A DNA stretch of 64,000 nt from Nitrospirae bacterium MYbin3 (GCA_002753335.1 PEAD01000003.1:62001-126000); one strand, 5' to 3'; shown: positions 8,960 to 58,094, numbered from the stretch's first letter. The notes: generated by a model not told the origin, from the sequence alone. Translations and numbers: made by a program.

Positions 8960-10519
8960 ATGACTACTAAAGAAATACCCTACCTTACGATCGAAGATTT
9001 TCCGAAAGTCCCGTTTGTTCTCGATGGGATTTCATCCCGCTTCATCCGCGAAAACAGAATAATTCCTCTTGAACTAAAAGAAAATGTGCTTCATGTTGCT
9101 ATGGCTGATCCTGATGACAGCAGCGTAATAGATGCCATGCTGGTTGCGACCGGAGCAGAGATGCGAGTATCCTCTGCCGACCCCAAAATAATCGACGATT
9201 ATATCTCTAAATTCTACGGGCATGAATCTCAGGATATAGGCCGCATTATCGAAGACATGGGAGAGCGAGGCGTTGAGCTTTTGAGAGATGAGGAGGAGGA
9301 TGTGGGACACCTCAAAGACCTCGCCTCTGAAGCCCCGATAATCAAGCTCGTAAACCTGCTCATAACCCGTGCTGTCGATGGCAGGGCGAGTGACATCCAT
9401 ATAGAGCCTTTTGAGGATGAGATGAAGGTCAGGTACCGTGTGGACGGCCTGCTGCATGACATAGAGACTGTGCCGAAGAAACTGCAGCCGGCGATTGTTT
9501 CACGCATAAAGATAATGTCGCGGCTTAATATTGCCGAGCGCAGGCTTCCTCAGGACGGAAGGCTCAAGCTCAAGGTTGGGGAAAAGGAGGTTGACCTCAG
9601 GGTTTCGACAATACCTGTTCTGCACGGCGAAAGCGTTGTGATGAGAATACTTCACAAGGAAAGCATCGTAATTGATCTGAACCGCTCCGGTTTCAATCCG
9701 GTTACGCTTGATGCCTTTGAGCAGGTGATAAAAAAGCCGAACGGAATAGTTCTTGTCACCGGCCCCACAGGCAGCGGAAAGACCACAACACTGTACGGTG
9801 CGATAGACAAAATAAATTCTCCTGACAAAAAAATTATTACGGTCGAAGACCCTGTGGAGTATCAGCTTAAAGGCGTCAACCAGATACATGTCAAGCCGCA
9901 GATAGGTCTGAATTTTGCAAACACTCTGCGCCACATAGTCAGGCAGGACCCTGACATAATAATGATCGGTGAGATAAGAGACCTTGAAACTGCCGAAATA
10001 GCGATACAATCCGCGCTGACCGGGCACCTTGTATTTTCTACGCTGCACACAAACGATGCAGCAAGCGCTATTACAAGGCTCATAGATATGGGGGTGGAAA
10101 GCTTTCTGCTTTCATCCACAATAAGGGGCATATTAGCGCAGAGGCTGGTGCGCGTAATTTGTTCCGACTGCAAAGAGTCTTATTCTTCGGCAGCTGACAA
10201 GGAAGGATTGCGGCTGCTAGAAAGCTTCCGCGACGACCGCTACATGATTTATTCTATAGACAGTGAAACCAAGCTCTACCGTGGCAAAGGCTGTGAGCGC
10301 TGCAACTACAGCGGGTATTTCGGCAGGACCGGCATATTTGAACTGCTTACTGTGGAGGATGACGTCCGCAGGCTTATAATCAAGAACACAGATTCAGCTC
10401 AGATTAAAGAGGCTGCTCAAAAGAAAGGCATGAAGCTGCTGCTCGACGACGGAATCGAAAAAGTTAAGGCCGGCATAACTACTCTGAACGAGGTGTTCAG
10501 GGTGACACAGGAATCATAA
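8960..10519 (+). CDS. gspE: Type II secretion ATPase GspE
   Basis: ASDIHIEP, Walker A GPTGSGKTTT, RQDPDIIMIGEIRD, tetracysteine motif. Confidence 0.93.
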   Translation: MTTKEIPYLTIEDFPKVPFVLDGISSRFIRENRIIPLELKENVLHVAMADPDDSSVIDAMLVATGAEMRVSSADPKIIDDYISKFYGHESQDIGRIIEDMGERGVELLRDEEEDVGHLKDLASEAPIIKLVNLLITRAVDGRASDIHIEPFEDEMKVRYRVDGLLHDIETVPKKLQPAIVSRIKIMSRLNIAERRLPQDGRLKLKVGEKEVDLRVSTIPVLHGESVVMRILHKESIVIDLNRSGFNPVTLDAFEQVIKKPNGIVLVTGPTGSGKTTTLYGAIDKINSPDKKIITVEDPVEYQLKGVNQIHVKPQIGLNFANTLRHIVRQDPDIIMIGEIRDLETAEIAIQSALTGHLVFSTLHTNDAASAITRLIDMGVESFLLSSTIRGILAQRLVRVICSDCKESYSSAADKEGLRLLESFRDDRYMIYSIDSETKLYRGKGCERCNYSGYFGRTGIFELLTVEDDVRRLIIKNTDSAQIKEAAQKKGMKLLLDDGIEKVKAGITTLNEVFRVTQES

Positions 10520-11716
10520 ATGTCCTTTTATTCCTACCGCGCCACCTCTATGGATGGTACTATCATGGAAGGCGTTATAGAGGCTGCAGATGAATCAGCG
10601 GCCTTTGAGCTGGTAAGGAGCAGGGGGCTTATCCCTTTAAAACTGGTTGCTCCCAAGGAAAGCTCAGGGAAAAAAATCTTTTCTTTTAAATCCACGAATT
10701 CTGACCTCTTAATGTTTACTACCGAGTTGTCCGCTCTTTTGAGCGCCGGACTCCCTATAGACCGAAGCCTCAACATACTTTCTGATATTTCTGAGAGCGC
10801 AGAGATGAGGAAGGTTATTCAAAATATTCTTAAAGCGATAAGGGAAGGCGGCTCCTTCTCTGATGCTCTTCAGCGCCACCCTGATATCTTTCCCAGAATT
10901 TATGTGAATATGGTCAGGGCAGGTGAGTCTGGGGGCGTAATCGATGCTGTTCTCGAGAAGCTCAACGAATTTTTAGAAACTAGCAAAGAGCTGAAGGACA
11001 GTGTTTTTTCGGCAATGATCTATCCGCTTATCCTTAGCTTCACCGGCGGCGTTTCGGTCATAATACTTTTAACGTATGTGCTGCCTAAATTTTCGGGTAT
11101 ATTTTCTGAGCTCGGCAGCACGCTTCCTGCATCCACGCAGCTTTTGCTATCTTTCAGCAGCGCTCTGCAATCATACTGGTGGATTTTTCTGACTCTGATT
11201 GCAGTCTTTTGGATAATAATCAAAAACTACAACAAGACGCCTGAGGGAAAACTGAAATTGGATTCAATCAAGCTGAAACTTTTAAGAGATGTAATAACAA
11301 AGCTGGAGACGGCGCGCTTCTGCAGGACGCTTGGCACTTTGATAAAGAGCGGCGTGCCGCTGCTTCAGGCGCTCAGAAACTCAAAGGATGTTATAAGCAA
11401 TCTGGCGATAGCCACGGCCATAGACAATGTATCAAAGGGGGCAAAAGAGGGAAAAGGTATTGCCGCCCCGCTTACAGAGGCTAATGTATTTCCTCAGCTG
11501 GCGCTCTCTATGATCAAGGTGGGCGAAGAGACAGGGCAGCTGGATGTAATGCTCATGAAGGTTGCTGTGACCTATGAGAAAAGTCTTCGTGTATCTGTCA
11601 GGAGGGTTGTAAGCCTGATAGAGCCTGCAATGATTTTGATAATGGGTTTGATTATAGGTTTTATTGTGCTGTCGATGCTGATGGCCATTTTCAGCATCAC
11701 CGATATGCCTTTTTAG
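10520..11716 (+). CDS. gspF: Type II secretion platform protein GspF
   Basis: Duplicated T2SSF domains (AGESGG, VGEETGQL) with three TM segments. Confidence 0.92.
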   Translation: MSFYSYRATSMDGTIMEGVIEAADESAAFELVRSRGLIPLKLVAPKESSGKKIFSFKSTNSDLLMFTTELSALLSAGLPIDRSLNILSDISESAEMRKVIQNILKAIREGGSFSDALQRHPDIFPRIYVNMVRAGESGGVIDAVLEKLNEFLETSKELKDSVFSAMIYPLILSFTGGVSVIILLTYVLPKFSGIFSELGSTLPASTQLLLSFSSALQSYWWIFLTLIAVFWIIIKNYNKTPEGKLKLDSIKLKLLRDVITKLETARFCRTLGTLIKSGVPLLQALRNSKDVISNLAIATAIDNVSKGAKEGKGIAAPLTEANVFPQLALSMIKVGEETGQLDVMLMKVAVTYEKSLRVSVRRVVSLIEPAMILIMGLIIGFIVLSMLMAIFSITDMPF

Positions 11717-11722
11717 CATTCA

Positions 11723-12166
11723 ATGAAGAAGACCGGCGGATTCACACTCCTGGAACTGATGATAGTTCTTGTCCTGATATCACTTATTCTTGGCCTGTCT
11801 GCAGCACTTTTTACAAAGACTCTTGGCAAAAGCTCGATGGATGCAACTGCGAGGGATATCATAGCGGCCGTGCGTGCTGCACGGGTCCTTGCACAGAATA
11901 ACGGTGTCAGCCAAAATATAGTCTTTGACCTCGAAACAAAGCGCTACTCGATCGAGGGGCGTTCAGAAAAGGTCTTGAGTTCAGGCATAGGTATTAAGAT
12001 CATTGATCCTCTTTATGGCGAAGTTATTAAAGGCAAATACAGTCTGACCTTTCATCCCGGCGGAGCTGTGGAAGGAGGCACGATAGTGCTTTCGGACACT
12101 AATAGGCGCATAAACATCCATATGGATCCGGTGATCGGTGCGGTCGAAATGAAGGCAGAATATTGA
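11723..12166 (+). CDS. gspH: Minor pseudopilin GspH-like
   Basis: Prepilin cleavage site GFTLLELMIV; operon position. Confidence 0.75.
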   Translation: MKKTGGFTLLELMIVLVLISLILGLSAALFTKTLGKSSMDATARDIIAAVRAARVLAQNNGVSQNIVFDLETKRYSIEGRSEKVLSSGIGIKIIDPLYGEVIKGKYSLTFHPGGAVEGGTIVLSDTNRRINIHMDPVIGAVEMKAEY

Positions 12167-12546
12167 AGGCCTCAAAAGGTTTTACTCTGCTTGAGGTGCT
12201 TGTAGCCCTTTCCATTCTGGGAATTGCGGTTTCTGTTGTGTTTCAGGTTTTCTCTGCCGGCTTGCGGGGCATCGCTGCATCCGAGGATTATGTGTTCGCT
12301 TCTGCAAAGGCTCTATCGAAGATGAGAGAGTTTACCGAAAGCGAAAAGTTTTCTGAAAAGTCATCAAGGGAGACCACCGATGACGGCTATACCGTTGATG
12401 TGAAGGTGTCGAAGGTGTTTAATGAAAGAACGGACAGGCTTCAGGTAGATATAGTAGAGATAGATCTAACGGTCAGCTGGACTAAAGGAATCAGGAATAA
12501 ATCAATAAATTTTAAAACACTCAAAACGGTCGGCAAGCAGATATGA
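12163..12546 (+). CDS. gspI: Minor pseudopilin GspI-like
   Basis: GFTLLEVLVAL; short length; operon position. Confidence 0.75.
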   Translation: MKASKGFTLLEVLVALSILGIAVSVVFQVFSAGLRGIAASEDYVFASAKALSKMREFTESEKFSEKSSRETTDDGYTVDVKVSKVFNERTDRLQVDIVEIDLTVSWTKGIRNKSINFKTLKTVGKQI

Positions 12547-13175
12547 TACGCTTCAAACGCAGTGCCGGTTTTACATTGTTGGAGTTGATGCTCTCGATGA
12601 CAGCCTTGAGCCTTGTGGTTGTCATAATCGCCGGCGCCATGAGGCTAGGATACAGGGCTGTTGAGTCGGGCGGGAAAAAGATAGAACTGCTCGAAAGGCT
12701 GAGAGCTTCGCTGAATATAATAGACGCACAGATTAGATCGCAGATACCGCTTACTGCCGGCGAGGAAGAATCTAAAAAATATTTATTCAAAGGCGACAGG
12801 GAATCGATGAGTTTTGCATCTAACTATTCGATATGGAGCGGACAGAGGGGATATGTTATGGTTGCCTATAAAGTGTCTTCTGAGTCCGATAAGTTTTCTT
12901 TGTACGCATCAGAGAATGTGATAAACCTTAAGGTTATGAATGAAACCAAGCTTTTGGAAGGGTTTGACGAGATAAGATTCGATTATTTCTATAAGGAGCC
13001 TGATGCTGAACAGGGCAGATGGACAGACCTCTGGAAGGAAGAAAATGGCCTGCCGGAGAAAGTGAGAATAACCATGATGTTTGACAAGAAAAGCTTTCCT
13101 CTTGTCGTACCGATAAAGGCGGTGGGCACATTGACGCCTCTTTTTGGGCAGATACCGGTTAATAAGCCGCGATGA
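12543..13175 (+). CDS. gspJ: Minor pseudopilin GspJ-like
   Basis: GFTLLELM; C-terminal W..W....LP.KV. Confidence 0.75.
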   Translation: MIRFKRSAGFTLLELMLSMTALSLVVVIIAGAMRLGYRAVESGGKKIELLERLRASLNIIDAQIRSQIPLTAGEEESKKYLFKGDRESMSFASNYSIWSGQRGYVMVAYKVSSESDKFSLYASENVINLKVMNETKLLEGFDEIRFDYFYKEPDAEQGRWTDLWKEENGLPEKVRITMMFDKKSFPLVVPIKAVGTLTPLFGQIPVNKPR

Positions 13176-14116
13176 AGATTCAGTTTAAAAAAAGTCGCGG
13201 CATAGCTCTAGTGCTGGTTCTTTGGGTGCTTGTGGTGCTTATTGTCACAGCCTTTTCATTTGCTTTTACGACGCGAACAGAGACTAATTCCACATTAGCC
13301 TTTAAAAATTCGATAGAAGAGAAGTTCTGTTCAGAGGCCGGAATCGAGAGGGGAGTAATGGAGCTCTTTTATAGAAGACAGAATTTGAATGTCGAGGGCC
13401 TCGAGACATGGAGGGCCAACGGTACTCTTTATAAAGGAACTCTTGGCGACTGCACGTATGAGGTGCGCATTACTGATGAGTCAGGCAAGGTGGACATAAA
13501 CACTATGCCTGATATAATATTAAAAAATTTATTACTGACGCTCGGGTTCGGTGCGGAAGAGGCGAACAGCATAACCGATTCTGTTATGGATTGGAAGGAC
13601 GCTGACGATCTGGTCAGGCTGAACGGCGCAGAGAGCAGTTATTATATGTCTCTTTCCAATCCCTACAAGGCAAAGAATGCTGATTTTGAGACGCTCGAGG
13701 AGTTGTCGCTGGTAAAGGGACTAACTGCTCAGGTCTTGAATGGGAGCGGTGAAAGAAAGGGGATAATGGGTTTTCTTACGGTTCATTCTCGGAGCTCTAT
13801 GGTCAATATTAATGCTGCGCCGAAAGAGGTTATAATGGCGATTCCGGGTATGAGCTTGTCTGTTGCAGATGCGCTTGTCAATTACCGTAGTGCAAAAGAG
13901 ATACAAAACATAAACGAGGTACAAACGCTTCTTGGCGAGGCCTATCCTATGGTTGCACTTTACGCTCAGGGTGGGGCCGGCGATATTTTTACCATAACAT
14001 CCACAGGCGTCAGAAAGGACGGCAAGACAGGCTACACAACCAGCGCAACCGTTGTGCTTAAGGACAACAAGCACAGGTTTGTGTATTACAAAAGCCCTGC
14101 TCAGGCAACACAATGA
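13172..14116 (+). CDS. gspK: Minor pseudopilin GspK
   Basis: GIALVLVLW lacking E5, DESGKVDIN, DWKDAD, NINAAP motifs. Confidence 0.9.
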   Translation: MKIQFKKSRGIALVLVLWVLVVLIVTAFSFAFTTRTETNSTLAFKNSIEEKFCSEAGIERGVMELFYRRQNLNVEGLETWRANGTLYKGTLGDCTYEVRITDESGKVDINTMPDIILKNLLLTLGFGAEEANSITDSVMDWKDADDLVRLNGAESSYYMSLSNPYKAKNADFETLEELSLVKGLTAQVLNGSGERKGIMGFLTVHSRSSMVNINAAPKEVIMAIPGMSLSVADALVNYRSAKEIQNINEVQTLLGEAYPMVALYAQGGAGDIFTITSTGVRKDGKTGYTTSATVVLKDNKHRFVYYKSPAQATQ

Positions 14117-15405
14117 ACAGTTCTATATCTTTAAAAGGTTTTTCTGACTCGGTCTCGGTTATGGCCGACAGGCTATCCGGGCTGCTGCGGCCGGTGGGGA
14201 AAGCTCTTATGGCAAATCATTTTGAGGATCTTCTTACAATGACGCGCAGTCTTTGCATCTCAATAGATGCTGAAGGCTTGACGGTGCTTTATGGCAAGAG
14301 GTCGTTTTCTAAGATGGTGTTGAGAGGCGTAAAGAGATACTCCTTTGATAAGGGAATCCCTGCTCCTGACAGTGTTGCCTCATACTCGTCCATTGCTTCA
14401 AATGAGCTGAACGCATCAGGGGCTGCTGTTGCTTTGGCAATCCCCAAGTCATGGGTCATGTTCAGGACCGCTGAGCTTCCTGCTGTTATTATGGAGAATA
14501 TATCAGAGGTTATTTCGCACGAAATTGACCGGTTGACGCCCTTTTCAAAGGATGAGGCCTTTTATGACTTCAGGGTTCTTGGTGTTTCTGAAGAAAAAGT
14601 AAATATACTTTTAGTTGCTGCAAAGAGAGATAAGGTGAAGCCGTATATTGATGCATTGGCCGAAAACGGTCTTGTTGTTTCTAAGCTTCTGTTTGATGAT
14701 CTGTCTGATGCTTTGAAGTCTGTCGGGCAGCCGCTTGCTGTGGATGCAGTTCTCGTGAAGTCCATGTCACAGAATCTTAACGAAGCGCTGGCTTTGAAGG
14801 CAGCAGGGGTTTTGATGCAGGCTTTAAATCCATCCGGGGGGATTGACCTGCTGACAAGCGGCTTCCGCATAAAGGAGAAAACCCCGCTTGCAGCTTCTGT
14901 TGCTTTAGCGTTGGCTGTTGCAGGCGCCTTGATATTTACGGCAGTTTATCCATACATAACCGAAGAGCGTAAGATAGAGGAGATAGATAAGCAGATAAAA
15001 ATAAAGAAGGAAGAGGCCAAGAAGGTAGAGAAGCTTAAGCAGGAAGCCGATGACCTGCAAAAAGAGATAACTACTGTCGAGGGTTTTAAGAAAACAAGAT
15101 ATATGACGGTGGATGTGTTAAAAGAGTTGACTTCTGTACTGCCTCATTCGGTCTGGCTTACGCGGACACGGATTACGGATTCGGGTGTGGAGCTTGAAGG
15201 CTACGCAGTAACCGCAACAGAGATGCTGCCTAAGCTCGAGGCGTCAAAATATTTTTTGAAGGCTGAGTTTGCGTCTCCTACGGTGAGGGACGCAAAGCTA
15301 AACTCCGACAGATTTTCACTGAAGATGGAGTTTGAAGGCCTTGAAAAGGCCGAGCCTGCAGATAATAAGACCGTAAAAGCCGCTAAAAAAGATGAAAAAA
15401 AATAA
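14113..15405 (+). CDS. gspL: GspL/PilM-PilN-like assembly platform protein
   Basis: Cytoplasmic actin-like region, TM segment, coiled coil, PilN-like periplasmic domain (LPHSVWLT...LEGYA). Confidence 0.7.
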   Translation: MNSSISLKGFSDSVSVMADRLSGLLRPVGKALMANHFEDLLTMTRSLCISIDAEGLTVLYGKRSFSKMVLRGVKRYSFDKGIPAPDSVASYSSIASNELNASGAAVALAIPKSWVMFRTAELPAVIMENISEVISHEIDRLTPFSKDEAFYDFRVLGVSEEKVNILLVAAKRDKVKPYIDALAENGLVVSKLLFDDLSDALKSVGQPLAVDAVLVKSMSQNLNEALALKAAGVLMQALNPSGGIDLLTSGFRIKEKTPLAASVALALAVAGALIFTAVYPYITEERKIEEIDKQIKIKKEEAKKVEKLKQEADDLQKEITTVEGFKKTRYMTVDVLKELTSVLPHSVWLTRTRITDSGVELEGYAVTATEMLPKLEASKYFLKAEFASPTVRDAKLNSDRFSLKMEFEGLEKAEPADNKTVKAAKKDEKK

Positions 15406-15943
15406 CACACTTATAATCACATTGCCTCTTTTGCTAATTGTAGCGGTTGGGGTGATTTATCAATACGGCTACCTCGGCATAAAATCGGGCATAGAATCTC
15501 TTTACGAAAGAGAAAATGCGAAGGTCAAGTCTCTCGAGAAATATGCAAATCTTATAGCAGAAAAACCTGAGATAGAAAAACGCATAGCAGTACTTAAGGA
15601 GATGAAAAAAGAGGTTGACACCAAGCTCATAGAAGGCAAGACCCCTTCGCTCGCTGCTGCAGCCTTGCAGGACAAGGTAAACGGTATAATAGTCGGAAGG
15701 GGCGGGCTCGTTACCAGCGGAAGGGTAAGCAAGCCCGAGGATTTAGGCGCTTTCAGAATGATAAGCGTCAGTATGGACGCTGCCATGCCTGACATGAGGG
15801 CATTAAACGATGTTCTTTACATGATAGAAACCCAGACACCTTATTTTATTTTAAAAGAGCTCGATATCAGGGTCAGGGACTATAGAAACCCCAAAGAGCT
15901 TATGGTAAGGTTTGACGTTGCCGCGCTTCTGAGAGGCAAATGA
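15392..15943 (+). CDS. gspM: GspM/PilO-like protein
   Basis: N-terminal TM segment, coiled coil, AAAALQ motif; follows gspL. Confidence 0.7.
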   Translation: MKKNNTLIITLPLLLIVAVGVIYQYGYLGIKSGIESLYERENAKVKSLEKYANLIAEKPEIEKRIAVLKEMKKEVDTKLIEGKTPSLAAAALQDKVNGIIVGRGGLVTSGRVSKPEDLGAFRMISVSMDAAMPDMRALNDVLYMIETQTPYFILKELDIRVRDYRNPKELMVRFDVAALLRGK

Positions 15944-15944
15944 T

Positions 15945-16553
15945 ATGAAGATGCTGCGATATCTGTTAAGAAACCTAAACACTCTCAACCTTATGTTGGT
16001 TGCTGTATTTCTGGTGATATTAAAATATCTTGCTATGCCGGCGCTTATACCGCAAGATAATTTTAAAACACCTGCACCCAAGAAAGCCGCTGTTCAGCTG
16101 CAGGCAGCAGCTTCTGACAATAAGACCTCTTCACCTCTTGACTATGCGCTGATAGCCGAGCAGAATCTTTTTCATCCCGAGCGCAAGATACCGATAGAGA
16201 GCAAAGATGACAACCAGGCGCCTAAGCCGGAGTTTGTTCTTTACGGCATATTGGCAACCGAAGATACAATGATAGTCTATCTCGAGGACAAAAAATCGTC
16301 ATCATCTTCTCCGGGGCGGGGGAAAAGGCAGCAGGCTTTGAAGCGTGGCGATACTTTAAGCGGTTTTAAGCTGGAATCTATAGAGGAAGACAGGATTGTA
16401 ATGACAAGGGGCGAAGAGAAGATTACGGTATTGATAGATGAAAAGCAGCGCCAGAGGCAGAAAGCTGTAACAGGTTCTGGAGGGACCGAACATAAATTGC
16501 CCCAGCAAACACAGCCGCAGCGTCAGCCGATCGTAGTTCAGCCAAAGAAATAA
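15945..16553 (+). CDS. GspC-like protein (TM segment + HR/PilP-like domain)
   Basis: TM anchor, NLFHPER, LYGI...LKRGDTLSGFKLESIEEDRIV. Confidence 0.6.
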   Translation: MKMLRYLLRNLNTLNLMLVAVFLVILKYLAMPALIPQDNFKTPAPKKAAVQLQAAASDNKTSSPLDYALIAEQNLFHPERKIPIESKDDNQAPKPEFVLYGILATEDTMIVYLEDKKSSSSSPGRGKRQQALKRGDTLSGFKLESIEEDRIVMTRGEEKITVLIDEKQRQRQKAVTGSGGTEHKLPQQTQPQRQPIVVQPKK

Positions 16554-16560
16554 GGATAGA

Positions 16561-18680: not shown

Positions 18681-19109
18681 ATGAAATTTAAAAGTCTAAT
18701 ATTTAATAGAAGGGGTTTCTCTCTTGTAGAGCTTCTTGTGGTTATGGTCATCATAGGATTGCTGGCATCTTTAGTTGCGCCTAAATTATTTCCCAAACTG
18801 GGCAAAGGCAAGCAGGCTGCTGCAAAGGCCCAGATAGAGTTGTATGGTGAGGCATTGGATCACTTTAGGCTTGATACCGGACGCTATCCCACCACACAGG
18901 AAGGATTGAATGCACTGATAACTAATCCCGGCGGTGTTGCCAAGTGGGAAGGCCCGTATCTGAAAAAAGGTATTGCGGCAGACCCATGGGGTGCGCCGTA
19001 CATATATCAGGCACCCGGTACGCATGGAGACTATGATTTATCATCTTACGGAAGGGATGCAAAGCCGGGCGGCGAAGGTGAAGATGCAGATATTTTTAGT
19101 TGGCAATAG
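18681..19109 (+). CDS. gspG: Major pseudopilin GspG
   Basis: GFSLVELLVV, YPTTQEGLNAL, WEGPYL, DPWG, GGEGEDADI. Confidence 0.95.
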   Translation: MKFKSLIFNRRGFSLVELLVVMVIIGLLASLVAPKLFPKLGKGKQAAAKAQIELYGEALDHFRLDTGRYPTTQEGLNALITNPGGVAKWEGPYLKKGIAADPWGAPYIYQAPGTHGDYDLSSYGRDAKPGGEGEDADIFSWQ

Positions 19110-19266: not shown

Positions 19267-19282
19267 TGGTACAATAATTGCA
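19267..19282 (+). promoter_or_regulatory. Sigma54 (-24/-12) promoter
   Basis: TGGTAC-AATAA-TTGCA matches TGGCAC-N5-TTGCW with exact spacing, upstream of RBS GGGAGGG and ATG 19320. Confidence 0.75.
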
Positions 19283-22313: not shown

Positions 22314-22330
22314 AAGGGAGGAGGATAGTC

Positions 22331-23434: not shown

Positions 23435-23467
23435 TATGAAACATATAAAATGCTCAAGGGGGAAAAT

Positions 23468-26929: not shown

Positions 26930-26940
26930 GGGGGATGGAT

Positions 26941-29542: not shown

Positions 29543-29585
29543 TAATAAAAACGGCTCCGCTTTTTAAGCGGAGCCGTTTTTATTA
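29543..29585. terminator. Bidirectional intrinsic terminator ending the cytochrome operon
   Basis: Perfect 20-bp inverted repeat TAATAAAAACGGCTCCGCTT-TTT-AAGCGGAGCCGTTTTTATTA. Confidence 0.88.
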
Positions 29586-29629
29586 TGATACTCAGTAAAA
29601 TCATAAAATTTTGCTGGAGGTTAGTTGCT

Positions 29630-32946: not shown

Positions 32947-32964
32947 AATGACCAGGGGACTATA

Positions 32965-35108: not shown

Positions 35109-35139
35109 TTACCATGTACTTGCCGCTGATGTGGCTGTC

Positions 35140-39316: not shown

Positions 39317-39320
39317 TGCT

Positions 39321-43182: not shown

Positions 43183-43221
43183 GTAAATCAAGGCGCTTGT
43201 CCTATCGGATAGGGTAGTTTT

Positions 43222-46311: not shown

Positions 46312-46343
46312 AACGATAGATAATATTGTTTCAAAACTCGCTT

Positions 46344-47969: not shown

Positions 47970-48036
47970 TATGTTGTAATGTTGAGCGCTTTTTTTATGC
48001 TGAGATTGCACACTATCTTCAGGAAAAAATGAGAAA

Positions 48037-49725: not shown

Positions 49726-49876
49726 ATTAGATATGATTAAGATGAGGAGCAGCTTTTCTCTTGTTTCTCCTTATTCTCCAATTCATTATAGCGATGGAAG
49801 GAGTGTCTATGCGTTTGCTTAGATGTATAGGAGCCATGCATTTCAAAAAAAATGATACAATTGAGGAATCATACTA

Positions 49877-50029
49877 ATGTTAAATTTTATGAAAGATCTT
49901 TTGGGTTTTATGCGGGAACGAAAAAAGTTTTGGCTGTTGCCCATTATCATTGTTCTGTTTCTATTAAGTATTTTGATGATTCTGACGCAAGGCAGTGCAG
50001 TTGCACCGTTTATTTATGCTCTCTTTTGA
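49877..50029 (+). CDS. SxtK-like / DUF5989 small membrane protein (50 aa, absent from the ORF track)
   Basis: MLNFMKDLLGFMRERKKFWLLPIIIVLFLLSILMILTQGSAVAPFIYALF with RKKFWL.P and APFIY.LF signatures; RBS GAGGA. Confidence 0.85.
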   Translation: MLNFMKDLLGFMRERKKFWLLPIIIVLFLLSILMILTQGSAVAPFIYALF

Positions 50030-50052
50030 AAAAATGATTTTACTTTTTAAAA

Positions 50053-51810
50053 TTGACCCGAATGACAACTGAACGCTCGCCAATGGTTTTCAAGTCTATG
50101 GATAGACGACACCTTGTCTTTTGGTTCCTGATGTTTCTGATCGTTATTGCCGGTATTGAGCTCGGCGCGCTGCTTATTGAGCGAGTAGAGAACTCTGTGG
50201 CGCGAAGCAAGAACCCATTTGTTGAATCAGTTAATCCGGCCTCGGCGTTTAAGATTGTGGATATTGGCGGAACTAAGATGGTGGTAAGATCTGAATTCCA
50301 TCCACTGATGAATACTGCGATGCAGCCGTTTCCCCTAAAGCGTCCGGAGGGAGGCCTTCGTGTATTCGTCCTAGGTGGCTCGGCCGCGGCTGGGTGGCCT
50401 TATCATGCTGGTGATACAAATATCAGTGCATTGCTCGAGCGAAAGCTTCGGATGTTATATCCGAGGCGACAGATTGAGGTGATTAATGCTGCCGCAGGAA
50501 CTTATGCTAGCCATAGGGTTAAGCTGATTTTCGAGGAAGTCCTTAGTTACAATCCAGACATTGTATTTCTTTACAATGGGAACAACGAGTTTCTGGAGAG
50601 TCTTGTCTATAGGCCGCAGAGACCTCAGGCACCGTGGGATCGTTCGGCTACAATTCGTCTAACATATCGAGCTGTAACGTCACTTATGGTTCCTCTCCCG
50701 CGTGTTGATGTGGGAAACTATGATATCAGCGCCCAGGTCCCGAACACACTCTCTTTCGCGTTTTCCAAGGCCTCGCTCTATCGAGAGGATTCGCGCCAGT
50801 TTCAGATGCTTCTTGAGCACTATCGGTTTAATCTAGAAGAGATGGCTAAAACCGCGCGTGCTGCCAAAGTTCCGCTATTCTTTCTCACCTGTCCTGTGAA
50901 TCTTAAGGATTGGGTTCCCAATGTTTCTAAGCATCGGAAAGATCTGTCTCTTGAGGATAAGGCGCGGTGGACAGGCCTATTTCGTGACGGATACCTCAAT
51001 ATTGAGAAAGGAAACTTCTCTGCAGCGATTGTTCCACTCAGAGCTGCTATCTCAATCGACGACGAATATGCAGAGGCCCATTACCGCCTTGCGGAAGCTC
51101 TTAGGCAAACCGGAAAGTGGGGCGATGCTAAGAATGAATACATACTAGCGCTTCAAAGAGATGCCTTTCCTTTTCGCGAGCTACCTGAGTTTCAAAATAT
51201 TTTGAGAGAAGTTGCTGCTAAGCAAGGAGTTCCTCTGGTAGATATAATCGCGCCGCTTGAGGCGGTTGCCGGGGAGGGTATTATAGGGCTTGACGTACTT
51301 ATCGATTACGTCCATTTGTCGGAGCGAAGTCAGGAGATTGTCTCTCATGAGATGGTGAAATCTCTTTTGATTCACGGATTGCTGCAGGGAATTTCTGCTG
51401 CCGATGTCGAACGTGTGCGTATATCGATTCCGTTGAAATTTTGGGCATTGAGGGATGTTATAGCTGCCGACCTTAAATACAACATGGCTATGATTATGCA
51501 CCAGTATGATAGGCTTGATGCGTTATATAAGGAGGCTGTTGAGATATTCAGCCGTGCAGCAAGGGAGGACCCATCTATTGCAGAGGACTGCAAGTGGAGG
51601 CTTGTTTCGTTTCGCCATATTCACTCGATAGTTGGGGCTTATCGAGATCTTCTGCGCGCTGAGAAACTGGGATTATTGGAGAAAACTTACACTCCAGAGG
51701 AAGCGCAACGAATATTTTTTGAATATCGCGATATGATACACCAGGTAAAAACTCCGAGTTTGTCTTGGGAGGAGTTCAAACAGAAGGTTCCCCAAGGCCC
51801 ATTCCAATAG
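50053..51810 (+). CDS. Membrane-anchored SGNH/GDSL hydrolase or acyltransferase with TPR
   Basis: Block I LGGS, EVINA, GNNE, DYVH; TPR YAEAHYRLA. Confidence 0.78.
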   Translation: MTRMTTERSPMVFKSMDRRHLVFWFLMFLIVIAGIELGALLIERVENSVARSKNPFVESVNPASAFKIVDIGGTKMVVRSEFHPLMNTAMQPFPLKRPEGGLRVFVLGGSAAAGWPYHAGDTNISALLERKLRMLYPRRQIEVINAAAGTYASHRVKLIFEEVLSYNPDIVFLYNGNNEFLESLVYRPQRPQAPWDRSATIRLTYRAVTSLMVPLPRVDVGNYDISAQVPNTLSFAFSKASLYREDSRQFQMLLEHYRFNLEEMAKTARAAKVPLFFLTCPVNLKDWVPNVSKHRKDLSLEDKARWTGLFRDGYLNIEKGNFSAAIVPLRAAISIDDEYAEAHYRLAEALRQTGKWGDAKNEYILALQRDAFPFRELPEFQNILREVAAKQGVPLVDIIAPLEAVAGEGIIGLDVLIDYVHLSERSQEIVSHEMVKSLLIHGLLQGISAADVERVRISIPLKFWALRDVIAADLKYNMAMIMHQYDRLDALYKEAVEIFSRAAREDPSIAEDCKWRLVSFRHIHSIVGAYRDLLRAEKLGLLEKTYTPEEAQRIFFEYRDMIHQVKTPSLSWEEFKQKVPQGPFQ

Positions 51811-52011
51811 AGTGAGGATTGTAAATTATATCTGAAAAATAATCGATTCAACGTAGCAAAGAATCTGACTGTATGCCGGTTGGACATGCTATAGCTATTA
51901 GTGCTATGTGCTTTTTGAAATTTATAGTGGTTTGTTTAAACTTTCGGTATAGCGAATGTTTGTTTGAAAAAGCATGGAAAAACTTATTTATGATAAAATA
52001 AAGATATATTT

Positions 52012-52800
52012 ATGAGAGGAGGAATAAACCATATGCAGATCGCATTGATTGTTTTGATATTGTCTTGTATTGTTGGGGGATCAACCGGTTGGGCTGAAGA
52101 GCAAACTATTATGACCGATCCAACTACAGGTATGGAGTTTGTTTTTGTAAAAGGTGGCTGTTTTGAAATGGGTGATGTCTTTGGGGGTGGTGAAAAAGAT
52201 GAGACTCCTGTTCATGAGGTCTGTGTTTCTGACTATTATATCGGTAAATACGAGGTCACACAGGGGCAGTTTCAAAAGATAAAAAAAGAATATTCTTTAG
52301 ATCTTCAGCAGTGCGGACTCGATTGTCCTGTTGGTAACTTAAGTTGGAAAATGGTGCAAGATTATATTTCTGCATTGAATGAAAAGAGCTCAAAACAGTA
52401 TAGACTGCCGACCGAAGCAGAGTGGGAATATGCTGCTAGGAGCGGGGGAAAGAAAGATAAGTGGGCAGGGACAAACAGCGAGGCAGAATTGACTGATTTT
52501 GTGAATTTTAATAAATCTGATGATAAGGCTTATGCTAAAGTTGGTAGTAGAAAACCAAATGGTCTTGGTATTTACGATATGAGTGGCAATGCTCAGGAAT
52601 GGTGCCAGGACTGGTACCATGAAGACTTTTATTCTAAGAAAATAAAGGATAATCCGACAGGACCTTCTACTGGTGTAATACGCGTTCTCCGCGGGGGGAC
52701 TTTTAATGATGATAAGATTTATGTAAGAACAACTGCAAGGAATAGTTCTTCGCCTGACGGGATTGATGGAGGGTTTCGTCTCGTGCTTCCTGTTAAATAA
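52012..52800 (+). CDS. Secreted FGE-sulfatase (SUMF1)-fold protein
   Basis: F.MG, RLPTEAEWEYAAR, GIYDMSGNAQEW, RGG, GFR; lacks the FGE catalytic Cys pair. Confidence 0.88.
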   Translation: MRGGINHMQIALIVLILSCIVGGSTGWAEEQTIMTDPTTGMEFVFVKGGCFEMGDVFGGGEKDETPVHEVCVSDYYIGKYEVTQGQFQKIKKEYSLDLQQCGLDCPVGNLSWKMVQDYISALNEKSSKQYRLPTEAEWEYAARSGGKKDKWAGTNSEAELTDFVNFNKSDDKAYAKVGSRKPNGLGIYDMSGNAQEWCQDWYHEDFYSKKIKDNPTGPSTGVIRVLRGGTFNDDKIYVRTTARNSSSPDGIDGGFRLVLPVK

Positions 52801-52895
52801 CAGTATGAGATTCTGTTAAGCGGCTGCCTTTGTTTCGGCCAGCTAAGAATTTTATAGCTATACTATTTCAAAATAAGTTTAAAGCAAGAAGTCTC

Positions 52896-54449
52896 ATGAA
52901 GTATAGTTGGTCATTTTCACTTCTGCTGCTGTTCATCGTTTTTGCAATATATGGAAATTCACTCGGGAATGATTTTGTATGGGATGATGCCGTTGTTATC
53001 GTCAAGAATCCTCTCTTGAAAGGGGATGCCCTTTCTCTATTTGCAGCCATAGACTCTGGTCGAGAGATAGATTTGACACCCTATTATCGGCCGTTGACCT
53101 TTCTCAGTTTTCTTGTTGAAGAACGTCTGCATGGCCTGAAGCCGTTTCCAATGCACCTCTTAAATGTCTTGCTTCATACGGTTAACGCATTTCTTGTTTA
53201 TCGACTTGCTCGATTTATTATCAAGGACGAACAGGCTTCATTTTTTGCGGCGCTACTTTTTGCAGTTCACCCTATAAGCAACGAAACGGTGGATTTTCTT
53301 TCTTGCCGCAATACATTGCTTGCTTGCTTTTTTGCACTTATGGCCTATCTTTTTCATATAAGAAGCGCTGTTGCTGGTGCGGTATTTTTTCTTGCCGCTC
53401 TTTTTTCAAAGGAAATAGGGTTGATGATTCTGCCGTTTATAGTAGCGCAAGAGATATCATCTGCCCGAAATATTTCAGGCTATAGATATAGGTCCCTCAT
53501 AAGGTTGATCCCTTATGTTTTCTGTACAGGTGCATATTTGGCTTTGCGGGGAAATGCCATTGATGCTGCTGGCGTCAAGATAGACATACTGTCCGGCCTT
53601 GGTACACGCCTTCTGGATAACCTTTATATTATTCCCCGTTATGTTCTTGCGATTGTATGGCCTTCATCCATCAGCATAAGATACTATGTTCCTGACGATA
53701 TTCATCTTTTAGCGCTGCCTCTTGTATTTGCTTGGATAGGCATATGCGGCGTGCTTGTATGGCTAATGATTCGTTGTCGCACCAAGGCAACACTTTTTGG
53801 ACTGGCTTGGTTAGTATCATTTTTGCTGCCGGTAAGCGGCATTATTCCAATCCCGAGTGCATCAATGGCCGACCGGTATTTGTATGTTCCTGCGATTGGT
53901 CTTTGGATTGTAATAGGAGATCAGTATTCAAGGTTAATTTCATCTCAGCTAAGATATCGTCGATACTTCTTGATTGCTTCAGTATTTATTCTTGTCTTTT
54001 TGTCAGTTGTTACCGTTATACGAAACAACGACTGGAAAAATGATGTTACGCTTTTCTCTCATTATGCTAAGCAGAATCCTGATAGCGCCTTTGCCCATCA
54101 CAACTTGGGCTGCGCCTATCTTGATAAGGTGGGAAATCTTGATGCTGCAGAGAGGGAGTTTTTTAAAGCTATTGATCTCAACCCCAGTTTCCCTCGGCTT
54201 TGGACGCAGATGGGGTATATAAGTTTGTTGAGGGGGAATTATGAGCTTGCTGTTAGCCGATATGATGAAGCGATCAGTCAGAACCCATTCGATGCTGAGG
54301 CTTATTTGAATAGAGCAATAGCATTTGATAGACTTGGGAAGTATGAATATGCGGTTGCTGATTATAGGCGTTTTCTTGCTATTCCCGGGAATGAATTGGC
54401 TGATGCTCGGCCTCAGGCAACAGAGCGGATGCGCGAGCTTGCAAAGTAA
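52896..54449 (+). CDS. TMTC-like GT-C glycosyltransferase with TPRs
   Basis: WDD, YYRPLT, HP...E.V, SKE, ADRYLY, AHHNLG. Confidence 0.85.
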   Translation: MKYSWSFSLLLLFIVFAIYGNSLGNDFVWDDAVVIVKNPLLKGDALSLFAAIDSGREIDLTPYYRPLTFLSFLVEERLHGLKPFPMHLLNVLLHTVNAFLVYRLARFIIKDEQASFFAALLFAVHPISNETVDFLSCRNTLLACFFALMAYLFHIRSAVAGAVFFLAALFSKEIGLMILPFIVAQEISSARNISGYRYRSLIRLIPYVFCTGAYLALRGNAIDAAGVKIDILSGLGTRLLDNLYIIPRYVLAIVWPSSISIRYYVPDDIHLLALPLVFAWIGICGVLVWLMIRCRTKATLFGLAWLVSFLLPVSGIIPIPSASMADRYLYVPAIGLWIVIGDQYSRLISSQLRYRRYFLIASVFILVFLSVVTVIRNNDWKNDVTLFSHYAKQNPDSAFAHHNLGCAYLDKVGNLDAAEREFFKAIDLNPSFPRLWTQMGYISLLRGNYELAVSRYDEAISQNPFDAEAYLNRAIAFDRLGKYEYAVADYRRFLAIPGNELADARPQATERMRELAK

Positions 54450-54644: not shown

Positions 54645-54914
54645 ATGCTGACAAAATTAACTAGAGGAAATCAGATAACCATTCCCAAGCCTATAATTGA
54701 AAAATCTCACCTTAAGGCTGGCAGTGATTATCTAGAGGTTGAATACAAGCGTGGAATTATATGTTTAAAGCCTGTTGAGGTTGAAGAGAGAATAGCTCCA
54801 GAGATTTTTGAAAGGTTTCAGAGAGAGGTGTTAAGGAAAGAGCGAGGCGATGTGGAGGTAGATGCAAAGTCAGGAGAGGGATTCCTGTCAAAAAGAGCCA
54901 AAAGAGCAAGGTGA
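54645..54914 (+). CDS. AbrB/MazE-family antitoxin
   Basis: N-terminal KLTRGNQITIPK...GIICLKP swapped-hairpin signature. Confidence 0.8.
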   Translation: MLTKLTRGNQITIPKPIIEKSHLKAGSDYLEVEYKRGIICLKPVEVEERIAPEIFERFQREVLRKERGDVEVDAKSGEGFLSKRAKRAR

Positions 54915-55204
54915 AAGCATTTCTTTACAAGAAGTCATTTTTAAAGGCTTTTGATCAATATAATGCGTCTGAAAAAGCATTAATTATTTTTGCTGATAAA
55001 CAAGTCAGGCATTTCTATGTGATGCAGAAAGCACCGTATGGTTTAAGGATTAAGAAGCTTTTTGAGAAAGAAGGGGAAAAGACTTTTGAGGCAAGGGTGA
55101 CAGATAAAATTCGCTTGCTTTATGTAGAATCAGAGTTAGTGGTTTCATTCGCTTTTCTTGGCAATCATGAGCAAGTCAGGCGATATATAAAAAGTTTTAA
55201 ATAG
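54911..55204 (+). CDS. RelE/ParE-like toxin
   Basis: 97 aa, basic, F.K...LRIKKL...FEARV...RL...LGNH; 4-nt overlap with the antitoxin. Confidence 0.68.
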   Translation: MKAFLYKKSFLKAFDQYNASEKALIIFADKQVRHFYVMQKAPYGLRIKKLFEKEGEKTFEARVTDKIRLLYVESELVVSFAFLGNHEQVRRYIKSFK

Positions 55205-55295: not shown

Positions 55296-56381
55296 ATGAT
55301 TTTTAAAAAAATATATGATTTTTTTTCCTCCTCCAAGCTCGCCATGTTTTTGCTTGTTTCTATTCTTGCATGCTGTGTTATTGGTGTAACCGTTATTCGG
55401 GGCGAAAAGGCATGGGAATTGATATTTAGTACGCTTTGGTTCAATTGTCTCTTGGTGCTTTTGGTCTTAAATGTAGCATTTTGTTTTTTCGGCAGGGTAT
55501 GGGGCAGGAAGGTGACGCTTATATCTTTTGGCATGATTCTTTTTCACCTGAGTTTTGTTTTTATGTTATTGGGTATTATCTATAACAGCCTGTTTTATTT
55601 CAGAGGGAATATCAGACTTACAGAGGGAGAGACTCTGCCGAGCGGCCAGCCTCAGAGCTACGATCTTATTTACCAAGGAAATTTATTTGACTTTTCGAAG
55701 TTGAAAGGCGATACGATGCTAATTAAAATGCATTCCGGTTATAAGGTTGACGGGATAGACAAGAGAGCTGCTTACGAGATTGCTGTTGGCGAGGGAATAA
55801 ATAAAAAACAGGGAATTATATATATTACGCACAATCTTGAACATAGAGGCTTTACATATTTTAATGACAAGGAGGGCTATTCTATTCTGGTTATACTTTA
55901 TGATAAGAATGGCAAGGAACTTTACGGTGCGCATATTCCTCTTCAAAGTCTAAAGCAGAAGGATGAGTCGTATTTTTACACTACCGGAACCAAAGAGGGG
56001 CCGGCAGCGTTTTCTTTTCCATTGGATATGGGCAAACCTCTATTTGATCTTCAGATTATATATAAGCCATCTAAGTTAGAGGACAGGAAGGGTAATGTTG
56101 CTTTTAAGTTATGGCCTCTTAAAATGGCAGATGCAAAATTAAATGATAAGCCTATCGCAGAGGGTGAGGTATTGATTGGGGAAAAGATTCTGATGGGTGA
56201 GTATTATCTTTTTGCAAAAGAGGTTCGTTATTGGGTCGGCATGAATGTTCGCTACGAACCCGGCAATCCGATTGTTCTTGCGAGTCTTTGGGTGGGACTT
56301 GCTGGAATAGTGATAACTTTTATAGGGAGGTTGATAAGGCGCAGTGGCGATTTTGCAGTTGATGGGGGACTGAAAAATTAA
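55296..56381 (+). CDS. resB: Cytochrome c biogenesis System II ResB/CcsB-like protein
   Basis: FFSSSKLA, F.T.WF..LL.LL.LN, G..LFHLS conserved His, LTEGET, V.YEPG + C-terminal TM segment. Confidence 0.72.
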   Translation: MIFKKIYDFFSSSKLAMFLLVSILACCVIGVTVIRGEKAWELIFSTLWFNCLLVLLVLNVAFCFFGRVWGRKVTLISFGMILFHLSFVFMLLGIIYNSLFYFRGNIRLTEGETLPSGQPQSYDLIYQGNLFDFSKLKGDTMLIKMHSGYKVDGIDKRAAYEIAVGEGINKKQGIIYITHNLEHRGFTYFNDKEGYSILVILYDKNGKELYGAHIPLQSLKQKDESYFYTTGTKEGPAAFSFPLDMGKPLFDLQIIYKPSKLEDRKGNVAFKLWPLKMADAKLNDKPIAEGEVLIGEKILMGEYYLFAKEVRYWVGMNVRYEPGNPIVLASLWVGLAGIVITFIGRLIRRSGDFAVDGGLKN

Positions 56382-56408
56382 TTGTGTTATTTGTCTAGAA
56401 GTTAAGCA

Positions 56409-58094
56409 TTGTCGACTAAATTTATCAACATCAATCCTATATTGACTACAAATTTTCTGAAACATCAGGATTTGTTTTTTTGCATACTGGCAGTATTCAT
56501 TGTCTTTTTCGTTTATGCCAACTCTTTGAATAATGGTTTTGTATGGGATGACACCAATGTTATCGTAACCAATCCGGCGCTAAGAGGACCTGCTTTTGAT
56601 GTATTCAATCGTATTGATAACACACGGGATTATGAAATGCTGCCGTATTATCGACCACTGACGATATTTACATTTATGGTTGAGGAAAGAATGTATGGGT
56701 TGAACCCAGCTTTTATGCATTTAGTTAATATACTGCTTCATTCTATAAATGCATTATTGGTTTATATTCTTGCACGGTCTTTTATAAGCCAAAACTATGT
56801 TGCTTTTCTGGCCAGCCTTTTGTTTGCAGTTCATCCTGTAAACACTGAAACCGTTAATTTCATTGCTGTTCGCAATAATTTATTGAGCTGTTTGTGCGTT
56901 CTTTCTGCATATCTTCTTTGTCGTAAAAGCATTATTGCGGACAGGCTGCACATTGCCTTTGCGGGAGCGAGTTTCTTTATGGCAGGGCTTTTTTCGAAAG
57001 AAACTACTATTATGGTTTTTCCGTTTATTATTGCATTGGAGTTTGCTGCACTTCGCGCTAATGCATTTCGTGCATTTGTGAGGCCGATAGTACGTTTAAT
57101 TCCATATGTTTTTGCATTGATTTTTTATCTTGGCATGCGCTGGCTGACACTTTCAAATCTTGGGATTCAAACAAGTATTATTCCGGGATTTGGAGCAGAA
57201 AAATTGCAGGGTTTTTATAAAATACCGGATTTGTGGTCGCGTCTGTTTGACAATATTTATATAATTCCACGTTATTTAATGACAGTTGTTTGGCCAACAG
57301 CTTTAAGCCCTAGATATTCTATTCCTGAGAGTTTTTCAGATCTTTTTTTGGAGCTCTGTGCTGCGTGGATTTGTATTATTGCGATGCTCTTCTGGCTTAT
57401 GACGCGAGGACGGAGCAAAACCACTATATTCGGTCTTTCATGGCTTATTGCATTCTGGATGCCTGTGAGTGGACTTGTGATGTTCCCAAGTGCACAGATG
57501 GCGGATAGGTATATGTATATTCCTGCTATAGGGGTATGGTTGATAGTTTCGGATCAGATTGGTAGATTGTATTTTTCTGTAAAAGATTCACACAAGTATT
57601 TTATTTCTGTTGTCGTGATTCTGCTTTTGCTTCTTGCCGGTTTAACGGTGAAACGAAATATGGACTGGAAAAGTGATATAACTTTGTTTGGGAGGTTTGT
57701 TGAACAATACCCAAATGATGCTTACAGTCATTTAGGTTTGGGTGATGCCTATTTTGGTGAGCGCAATATTGATAGTCGTTATCTCGATTTAGCCGAACCA
57801 GAATATAAAAAGGCGCTTGCATTGAAACCTGTCCTGCCGGGGGCACATACAAATTTGGGATATATTCGACTGGCAAAAGGAGACTATGAAGGCGCGGTAC
57901 ATTATTACACAATTGCCTTAGGGGGGTACCCTTTAGACAAGGAGGCATTATTGAACAGGGGAATTGCACTCGAAAACCTTGGGAGGCAGAAAGAGGCGGT
58001 TGAAGATTTTAAGAGATTTTTATCTGTTCCAGGTTACGAACTATCAGAGGCGCGGCCGTATGCCGAAGCAAGAATAATAGAACTTACAAAGTGA
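56409..58094 (+). CDS. TMTC-like GT-C glycosyltransferase with TPRs
   Basis: WDD, YYRPLT, HPVNTETVN, SKE, ADRYMY, AHTNLG; start uncertain. Confidence 0.85.
   Translation: MSTKFININPILTTNFLKHQDLFFCILAVFIVFFVYANSLNNGFVWDDTNVIVTNPALRGPAFDVFNRIDNTRDYEMLPYYRPLTIFTFMVEERMYGLNPAFMHLVNILLHSINALLVYILARSFISQNYVAFLASLLFAVHPVNTETVNFIAVRNNLLSCLCVLSAYLLCRKSIIADRLHIAFAGASFFMAGLFSKETTIMVFPFIIALEFAALRANAFRAFVRPIVRLIPYVFALIFYLGMRWLTLSNLGIQTSIIPGFGAEKLQGFYKIPDLWSRLFDNIYIIPRYLMTVVWPTALSPRYSIPESFSDLFLELCAAWICIIAMLFWLMTRGRSKTTIFGLSWLIAFWMPVSGLVMFPSAQMADRYMYIPAIGVWLIVSDQIGRLYFSVKDSHKYFISVVVILLLLLAGLTVKRNMDWKSDITLFGRFVEQYPNDAYSHLGLGDAYFGERNIDSRYLDLAEPEYKKALALKPVLPGAHTNLGYIRLAKGDYEGAVHYYTIALGGYPLDKEALLNRGIALENLGRQKEAVEDFKRFLSVPGYELSEARPYAEARIIELTK

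Follow-up and report, generated by a model that had tools for sequence, protein, structure and literature searches.

A Geobacter cluster 3-type cytochrome locus in a Nitrospirota genome and a predicted minus-one N-glycosylation sequon

Do secretion, cytochrome and glycosylation genes that lie side by side in a bacterial genome form one system? The question is raised by a stretch of 64,000 nucleotides from Nitrospirae bacterium MYbin3 (PEAD01000003.1:62001-126000), hereafter the window, which carries between positions 8960 and 58094 a type II secretion system (T2SS), a sigma54-type site heading an operon of multiheme cytochromes, a ResB gene and an island of glycosyltransferase and radical-SAM genes. 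A preliminary description read these blocks as one undescribed pathway that builds, glycosylates and secretes an extracellular electron-transfer filament. All the parts that it listed are present (T2SS, sigma54 site, 44 heme motifs, six GT-C glycosyltransferases, a family 2 glycosyltransferase (GT2), ResB and tailoring enzymes), and four others had been overlooked: a CcsA gene, which lies on contig C41 and not in the window, an AbrB/RelE-like gene pair, a 20-bp hairpin and the D-N-x-S/T motifs of the cytochromes. In the reading that we favour, and hold to be probable though far from secure, the locus is of the Geobacter gene cluster 3 type: giant cytochromes would be transcribed from the sigma54 site, loaded with heme by ResB and CcsA, N-glycosylated at D-N-x-S/T by a distantly encoded PglB and exported as surface conduits, the T2SS being a general neighbour. 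New here, as read from sequence, are the 32 D-N-x-S/T motifs in three cytochromes and their match to a PglB clade encoded outside the window.

D-N-x-S/T motifs and the PglB clade

The two giant cytochromes of the window contain 41 and 28 N-x-S/T sequons against 25.2 and 15.3 expected, counts reached in 0 of 1000 shuffles. The whole of this excess is carried by D-N-x-S/T, which occurs 15, 12 and 5 times in the 27-motif, 12-motif and pentaheme cytochromes (expected 1.0, 0.5 and 0.2), a total of 32 where about 2 would be expected; the NHL protein of the same operon has none. In the same-genus relative G001, whose genome is 99% complete, the cytochromes carry 13 such motifs against 1.3 expected, while 18 other cytochrome sets from 17 other genomes have 0-6 against 0.6-4.9. 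An excess of plain N-x-S/T as a family trait was rejected, since the ratio is about 1 in most relatives and the excess sits in D at position -1. The same signal is seen throughout the host genome (G000, 2.93 Mb; the window lies on contig C37, and the other contigs cited are C1, C21, C34, C36, C41, C46, C48, C50, C52, C59 and C66). There, DN is followed by S or T at +2 in 93/330 cases in exported proteins and in 137/1119 in cytoplasmic ones (p 6e-11); with the window cytochromes removed, the exported proteins give 73/302 against 714/4895 for other Asn residues (p 2e-5). In exported proteins D at -1 gives a fraction of 0.28, whereas D or E at -2 gives 0.14, which is background, and E at -1 gives no signal. 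Exported proteins rich in the motif, counted over their DN pairs, include those at C46:54712-55392 (5/5), C50:1234-2349 (5/6), C36:38907-43421 (5/5) and C46:46873-50190 (6/11), which are candidate N-glycoproteins.

The host genome encodes two STT3/PglB proteins, both outside the window, at C1:192425-194479 (WWDFG) and C48:9187-11166 (WWDWG). They have STT3 membrane domains with the WWDxG core and resemble 3rce/5ogl (E 2e-13 to 3e-12). On C48 the gene is preceded by two pilin genes and followed by GT2 and TMTC-like genes (C48:7959-13915), likely a pilin-glycosylation locus. With the C1 PglB as query, matches were found in 17 of the 251 genomes used for class-wide counts: G000, G001, three other members of family f1 (two weakly) and 12 of the 13 members of family f4. 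In the f4 genome G039, taken as a test of prediction, DN in exported proteins continues as DN-x-S/T in 15/39 cases, where other Asn give a fraction of 0.14 (odds ratio 3.7, p 4e-4). Stretches pooled from 22 genomes without this clade give 84/448 against 1646/8055 (odds ratio 0.9); within that pool G026, and weakly G122, have a more distant STT3 match, and G032, G038, G226, G173 and G090 have none. All three PglB-clade genomes tested (3/3) show enrichment of the motif in their exported proteins. From the motif excess and its match to PglB we predict that the cytochromes are densely N-glycosylated by an oligosaccharyltransferase that is encoded elsewhere and follows an acidic -1 rule. On balance, if narrowly, we consider it probable that D-N-x-S/T serves as a 'minus-one' sequon for a PglB clade found in Thermodesulfovibrionia-type Nitrospirota, and that the giant wires of this genus independently gained about one site per 1-2 hemes, giving a dense N-glycan coat, with a conserved ResB/CcsA-LuxE-B12 module and a swappable GT-C cassette adding further modifications.

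The putative enzyme shares its STT3 domains and WWDxG core with known bacterial PglB proteins, for which a multiheme cytochrome is an established substrate: excerpts of PMC4894442 and PMC12229607 describe the D/E-x-N-x-S/T (minus-two) rule of Campylobacter, relaxed Desulfovibrio enzymes and the glycosylated 16-heme HmcA. It differs from the Campylobacter type in that the signal in the genome lies in D at -1 and is missing at -2, and in that the position of Arg331 is Gly in the host PglB, as read from the alignment; moreover, the host cytochromes have up to 15 candidate sites per protein, unlike known substrates. The same excerpts contain no acidic -1 rule, although one RDNAT site was modified by relaxed enzymes. 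No report of a D-N-X-S/T sequon, or of N-glycosylation in Nitrospirota, was found in the open literature under this wording.

Could the motif instead be a structural or repeat element, such as an Asx-turn or a metal-binding loop, left unglycosylated, with the island a generic cassette for surface glycans that has no link to the cytochromes? We regard this as rather unlikely. The sites are kept in 0/102 alignments to homologues from genomes without this PglB and in 4/27 in G001; as the positions are not conserved, a shared fold cannot account for them, and at the level of sequence they are recent gains in the window cytochromes. The excess is also seen only with D at -1, only in exported proteins and only in genomes of the PglB clade, and GT39/TMTC orthologues lie within the cytochrome cluster in 11/18 loci. 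What speaks for a structural motif and a generic cassette is that TMTC-like genes occur also on C34, C46, C48 and C66, one of them beside pilin genes, that the island has a lower GC content (0.406 vs 0.444), and that motif counts are raised in three loci without this PglB (L152 10/23, L133 5/10, L184 4/6). These last counts also weigh against minus-one glycosylation, as do several other points: the association with PglB rests on two lineages, one genus and one family, and G039 was read over 400 kb only; the 'exported' class was assigned by a crude hydropathy rule; and the loci compared below were chosen by matches to cluster genes, many of their contigs being short and the kin not independent.

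Cytochrome operon and maturation unit

The features of the window are listed in Table 1; its families were assigned by scanning 49 open reading frames (ORFs) against Pfam and NCBIfam cut-offs. The sigma54 site proposed ahead of the cytochrome operon is present with one mismatch; the genome contains 63 such sites in all and also carries rpoN. A site with at most one mismatch recurs upstream of 9/34 homologous NHL genes, where shuffled sequences would lead one to expect 0.07. Scans of the window for sigma70 promoters and terminators stayed at chance level, and no riboswitch or other RNA family was found in it at the Rfam gathering score. The perfect hairpin that closes the operon is likely a terminator.

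Table 1. Coordinates of features in the window (positions counted from its first nucleotide)
Feature	Position	Strand	Basis or remark
gspE, F, H, I, J, K, L, M, C	8960..16553	+	Pfam/NCBIfam; general T2SS of the genome, lineage-specific neighbour of the cluster
gspD secretin, convergent with gspC	16561..18546	-	TIGR02517, 403 bits (cut-off 351)
gspG major pseudopilin	18681..19109	+	TIGR01710 above cut-off
sigma54-type -24/-12 site, TGGTAC-N5-TTGCA	19267..19282	+	heads cytochrome operon
Secreted NHL propeller-BACON-FG-GAP protein	19320..22313	+	NHL gene upstream of pentaheme homologues in 64/71 loci (71 of 78 had enough sequence)
Pentaheme cytochrome, distant OmcS-like core and small beta insert	22310..23434	+	5 CxxCH; 5 D-N-x-S/T
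27-motif CxxxxCH/CxxCH cytochrome	23450..26929	+	TIGR01904; 15 D-N-x-S/T
12-motif cytochrome, likely start 27076	26899..29520	+	12 D-N-x-S/T (12/12 of its DN pairs)
Perfect 20-bp inverted repeat	29543..29585		closes cytochrome operon
TmcD-like beta-propeller, lipobox-like Cys, conserved core gene	29585..30994	+	in 18/18 loci with ResB orthologue
GT39/PMT-family GT-C and 200-aa UPF0489/arginase-like partner (lead only)	31094..32946	+	family matches
Methyltransferase, GT9, B12 radical-SAM, radical-SAM, B12 radical-SAM, radical-SAM, methyltransferase	32965..41254	-	order kept in G183, 64-86% identical
TMTC-like GT-C a	41578..43182	+	TMTC motifs
B12 radical-SAM and Dpm1-like GT2	43222..45344	-	orthologue pair beside GT39 and ResB in G131, G054
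Methyltransferase, TMTC-like b and c, SGNH-TPR, FGE-sulfatase-domain protein, TMTC-like d	45538..54449	+	family matches
AbrB/MazE-like antitoxin and presumed RelE-like small ORF	54645..55204	+	RelE part without family match
Short ResB, cytochrome-dedicated type	55296..56381	+	CcsA partner on C41
TMTC-like GT-C e	56409..58094	+	TMTC motifs

The description of a 44-heme cytochrome set agrees with our count of heme motifs: 5 in the pentaheme protein, 27 in the first giant cytochrome (20 CxxCH, 6 Cx4CH, 1 Cx3CH) and 12 in the second (10 CxxCH, 2 Cx4CH), or 35 CxxCH, 8 Cx4CH and 1 Cx3CH over the three. The giant CxxxxCH cytochromes match TIGR01904 and PF09698, and no lipobox was seen in these cytochromes by inspection. 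Two large proteins were noted elsewhere: a single cytochrome of 4454 aa with 64 CxxCH and 16 Cx4CH motifs (L094:3217-16581, G038), and a 21-heme protein of 2902 aa with 8 D-N-x-S/T from another phylum (L152:9995-18703), in a genome without a match to this PglB. The NHL-BACON-FG-GAP protein is likely an assembly or anchor partner of the cytochromes.

The pentaheme family occurs in 20/251 class genomes, and its profile, built from 98 sequences, aligns along OmcS residues 7-343 (E 2e-13), with the five CxxCH and five further conserved His colinear with the bis-His heme motifs of OmcS. By sequence, the pentaheme is a distant OmcS relative. A first structural model, from 16 sequences, was unusable (predicted local distance difference test score 50); the second, scoring 85, gave Z 5.0 against OmcE (root-mean-square deviation 3.3, 127 residues aligned) and Z 4.9 against OmcS (6.3, 212 aligned), both middling values below the level that stands out. 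Its top fold matches were rejected as non-specific, falling on the small beta insert. Compared with the filament subunits OmcS and OmcE (6ef8, 7tfs), the window protein has five hemes, a beta insert and a middling Z, and its polymerisation is hypothetical. Most short pentaheme homologues keep a His (HFQR) that is replaced by Arg in the window protein and lost also in G001, G008 and G201. The His-to-heme count thereby shifts from 11:5 to 10:5, which may be relevant to a role as cap or anchor.

In the relatives the conserved order begins with the NHL gene, the pentaheme and the giant CxxxxCH cytochromes, followed by the 12-motif cytochrome, TmcD-like propeller, short ResB, CcsA, B12 radical-SAM, LuxE-like acyl-protein synthetase, a 112-aa membrane protein and a BchE-like B12 radical-SAM. 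In the host genome this unit is split between C37 and C41: the window has no copy of CcsA, and C41:8121-14586 carries the set from CcsA to the BchE-like gene, its proteins 72-85% identical to those of G054. Among the 42 longer loci, selected by matches to NHL, pentaheme, GT39 or ResB genes, 18 have a ResB orthologue, and these have the beta-propeller and CcsA in 18/18 cases, LuxE-like in 16/18 and TMTC or GT39 in 11/18; ResB/CcsA are contiguous with LuxE-like and radical-SAM genes in 16/18. Class-wide, ResB is found in 23/251 genomes and close LuxE-like orthologues (at least 79% identity) in 22/251, with an overlap of 20 genomes. The LuxE-like protein is 79-97% identical between families, unusually conserved for an accessory gene. 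ResB and the C41 CcsA are possibly specialised for Cx4CH motifs. As a further point against our reading, G001 has Cx4CH cytochromes without an orthologue of this ResB or LuxE, and therefore the module is not required.

This arrangement is not without precedent. Geobacter gene cluster 3 (Gmet_0571-0601; GSU2880-2899: OmcA/H/G, OmcN), listed in 2009 in PMC2700814 Table S5, likewise has an NHL gene before giant cytochromes and, by gene classes, ResB/ResC pairs together with genes for acyl-protein synthetase, radical-SAM enzymes, GT9 and GT2; that paper proposed that the ResB/ResC pairs are dedicated ones. A Geobacter argillaceus ResB is 66% identical to that of the window, the cluster being otherwise compared by gene list. 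Excerpts of other papers predict long wires for OmcA/H/G (PMC11492766) and record these cytochromes in proteomes (PMC8691401). The window locus differs in its Nitrospirota host, its split over two contigs, its five TMTC-like genes and GT39, its T2SS next door, its D-N-x-S/T load, and its sigma54 site without an Rfam riboswitch, where omcAHG is under riboswitch (GEMM-Ib) control (PMC6456294, in excerpt). A second parallel is with OmcE clusters, in which, according to the excerpted PMC13712944, 15-70 genes for GT2/4/39, methyltransferases and TPR proteins come after the cytochromes, and for which that paper proposes glycosylated cytochrome filaments. The window shares the arrangement of a cytochrome operon with GT2/GT39, methyltransferase and TPR-protein genes behind it and lacks the tetraheme OmcE, the paired short propellers and the large barrel-type gene, for which the barrel-position profile had no match among window ORFs. 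The belief that the combination was undescribed is therefore not borne out: without the T2SS it is already in print (PMC2700814 Table S5; PMC13712944, in excerpt). Geobacter-type clusters have been known since 2009 and cytochrome-plus-glycosylation clusters since 2026, and the window locus is a variant of them. No report of LuxE with multiheme cytochrome and radical SAM was found in the open literature under this wording.

Secretion system and routes of export

The full T2SS set (GspD, E, F, G-K, L/M/C) is present at 8960-19109 with gspD inverted; GspD, GspE, GspG and GspM pass NCBIfam cut-offs, and F, H-L and C were assigned by Pfam or sub-cut-off matches. It is the sole close GspD-type system of the host genome, whose remaining secretins are 27-31% alike. 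An MSHA-like secretin gene at C21:88780-90501 reads as two ORFs, possibly owing to a frameshift. Is this T2SS a conserved partner of the cytochromes? That candidate was rejected. Of 78 pentaheme-family loci drawn from all GTDB species (49 with more than 8 kb of upstream sequence), a single one, from the same genus, has gspD/E/F beside the cytochrome module, and the window-type T2SS is found in 1/42 longer loci, again the same-genus relative. Moreover, gspG was found in 31/41 genomes searched, and among 30 gspG loci with 1.5-kb flanks those of G000 and G001 are the only ones where the long NHL gene comes next; a partial exception is G018, with a short NHL gene and a tetraheme upstream of gspG. 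With adjacency in 1/78 and 1/42 loci only, the link fails the synteny test set for it in the preliminary description, and the place of the T2SS in the integrated system there proposed is not supported. It is likely a general secretion system, the cluster's neighbour in one genus; it may carry folded cytochrome cargo, while dedication to that cargo is without support.

The original proposal, one pathway with the island GT-Cs glycosylating cytochrome filaments and this T2SS specifically exporting them, is quite improbable: to the rarity of the adjacency are added the separate sigma54 start of the operon, the absence of the island from G001, and GT39 orthologues in G183, G131, G054, G071, G200 and G037 that have no window-type T2SS nearby. 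It draws some credit from the physical adjacency in G000 and G001, from the absence of a porin-like gene from the window and from the 22-25% Ser+Thr of the cytochromes, which suits O-glycosylation. A MshL-like secretin system, different from the window T2SS, also adjoins the cluster in 3/42 loci, and a lone pseudopilin-like gene lies inside it in 9/42; pilus-type export thus has some support, to the detriment of our own reading as well. A divergent pseudopilin-like gene of 180 aa lies within the maturation cluster of G054 (L196:6631-14804), G090 and, at a contig edge, G071, directly followed in these by the MshL-like system; the gene is found in 17/251 genomes. In Shewanella the T2SS exports the outer-surface cytochromes MtrC and OmcA. 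The host cell similarly combines a T2SS with multiheme cytochromes, their surface location here being presumed; the differences are the missing lipobox and the non-conserved T2SS linkage.

Alternatively, the cytochromes could leave through a large outer-membrane protein of the OmcE-type cluster on C59, as proposed for OmcE/OmcS, with the T2SS irrelevant; we consider this possible but doubtful. A family of secreted proteins of 560-760 aa stands at the OmcE-cluster barrel position in 10/42 module loci and once in the host genome, although five of the ten built the profile and one match is partial, and a porin route is favoured for OmcE-type cytochromes in excerpts of PMC13712944. The gene is nevertheless missing from 32/42 loci, Pfam holds no barrel family for the putative barrel, a strand-pattern test did not separate it from controls, and the cargo, at 0.9-4.5 thousand residues, is far above OmcE size. 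The host OmcE-type cluster (C59:17977-26839) contains, by inspection, two NHL, a PPIase-like and a large secreted protein, and 10-, 4- and 5-heme cytochromes; a lone tetraheme OmcE-like gene was likewise seen at C52:218-922.

The thiD-radA-lolB-like genes that border the T2SS here border the cytochrome supercluster in G040 (L099/L032, G040:C5), hinting at an old insertion site. Between thiD and radA lies an MCP-cheW pair (window 3991-6174), which is not so placed in G001.

Glycosylation island and proposed pathway

The six GT-C transferases and the GT2 that had been described resolve into five TMTC-like proteins, one GT39/PMT and one Dpm1-like GT2 without a membrane helix; the island further encodes GT9, three B12 radical-SAM, two radical-SAM/SPASM-type proteins and three methyltransferases. 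Wzx, Wzy, WaaL and nucleotide-sugar families had no match among the 49 window ORFs, in agreement with the view that this is not an O-antigen or capsule locus. The TMTC-like proteins resemble the O-mannosyltransferases TMTC1-4 in having a GT-C domain with a TPR tail and the DD motif (5/5 copies); excerpts of PMC7801869 give the motifs as DD, KE, DW and ERxxY and mention uncharacterised prokaryotic homologues. They differ in that KE and DW are present in 3/5 copies (c, d, e), a and b lacking both and hence the KE glutamate, and in having ADRxxY in place of ERxxY, the likeness being one of sequence only. Among the best 60 matches listed for the TMTC profile against PDB sequences there were only TPR matches.

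The co-occurrence of cytochromes, ResB, GT-C/GT2/GT9 and B12 radical-SAM genes holds in relatives from several families. G183 has the block from GT39 to methyltransferase in the same order at 53-86% identity, and G131 and G054 carry a B12-GT2-GT39-ResB set. G001, by contrast, has no DNA match to window 29500-49400 beyond 81 nt, only a block of 28-35% identity elsewhere, yet keeps the T2SS and cytochromes, so the island is not fixed to them. Four-fold-site identity to G183 is 0.37-0.49 in the island, against mostly about 0.3 for other genes, and together with the lower GC this suggests old horizontal exchange; the glycosylation genes are probably a variable, horizontally exchanged cassette. A single mobile island was rejected: because there are no tRNA and no long terminal repeats, and GC differs from block to block, the window is a mosaic. 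A degraded transposase-like remnant with frameshifts and a stop lies between the radical-SAM block and TMTC a (41380-41520); it has no family match and we take it to be IS481-like. A 51-aa hydrophobic ORF ahead of the SGNH-TPR gene (49875-50030) presumably resembles the small DUF5989-type genes of SxtJ/carbamoyltransferase cassettes. Toxin-antitoxin-like pairs lie inside the island here (54645-55204) and directly after the last cytochrome in G001 (L022:8604-9708), such small insertions being common in these clusters (G191, G173).

TMTC or GT39 as the cause of the D-N-x-S/T motif was also rejected, since relatives with orthologues lack the motif and G001 has it without the island. The clearest glycosylation signal on the cytochromes tracks the unlinked PglB, not the island GT-Cs. 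Of the integrated pathway first proposed, the co-occurrence of cytochromes, ResB, glycosyltransferases and B12 radical-SAM genes stands; the T2SS link, the fixed island and the GT-C-driven glycosylation signal are not supported.

In the Geobacter cluster 3-type reading that we prefer, the cytochrome operon would be transcribed with sigma54 and its products exported by Sec, after which the window ResB and the C41 CcsA would attach heme. PglB would then move a lipid-linked glycan en bloc onto the Asn of D-N-x-S/T, and the GT2, GT39, TMTC-like, methyltransferase and radical-SAM products of the island would add and tailor further single sugars, either on the glycan itself or on proteins of the surface. 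The cytochromes would assemble with the NHL protein and the pentaheme, cross the outer membrane by the T2SS or a barrel, and be displayed at the surface.

The T2SS part is of little weight, as secretion and glycosylation genes do not form the conserved unit that was proposed. Glycans on cytochrome nanowires may serve insulation, anti-bundling or adhesion; in excerpts of PMC13712944 their sites on OmcE are seen only as extra densities. Here the sequence itself lets the sites be predicted, and wires of near-identical type that have or lack them offer a natural comparison. If true, a PglB with an acidic -1 preference would represent a third kind of bacterial sequon rule, useful for glycoengineering.

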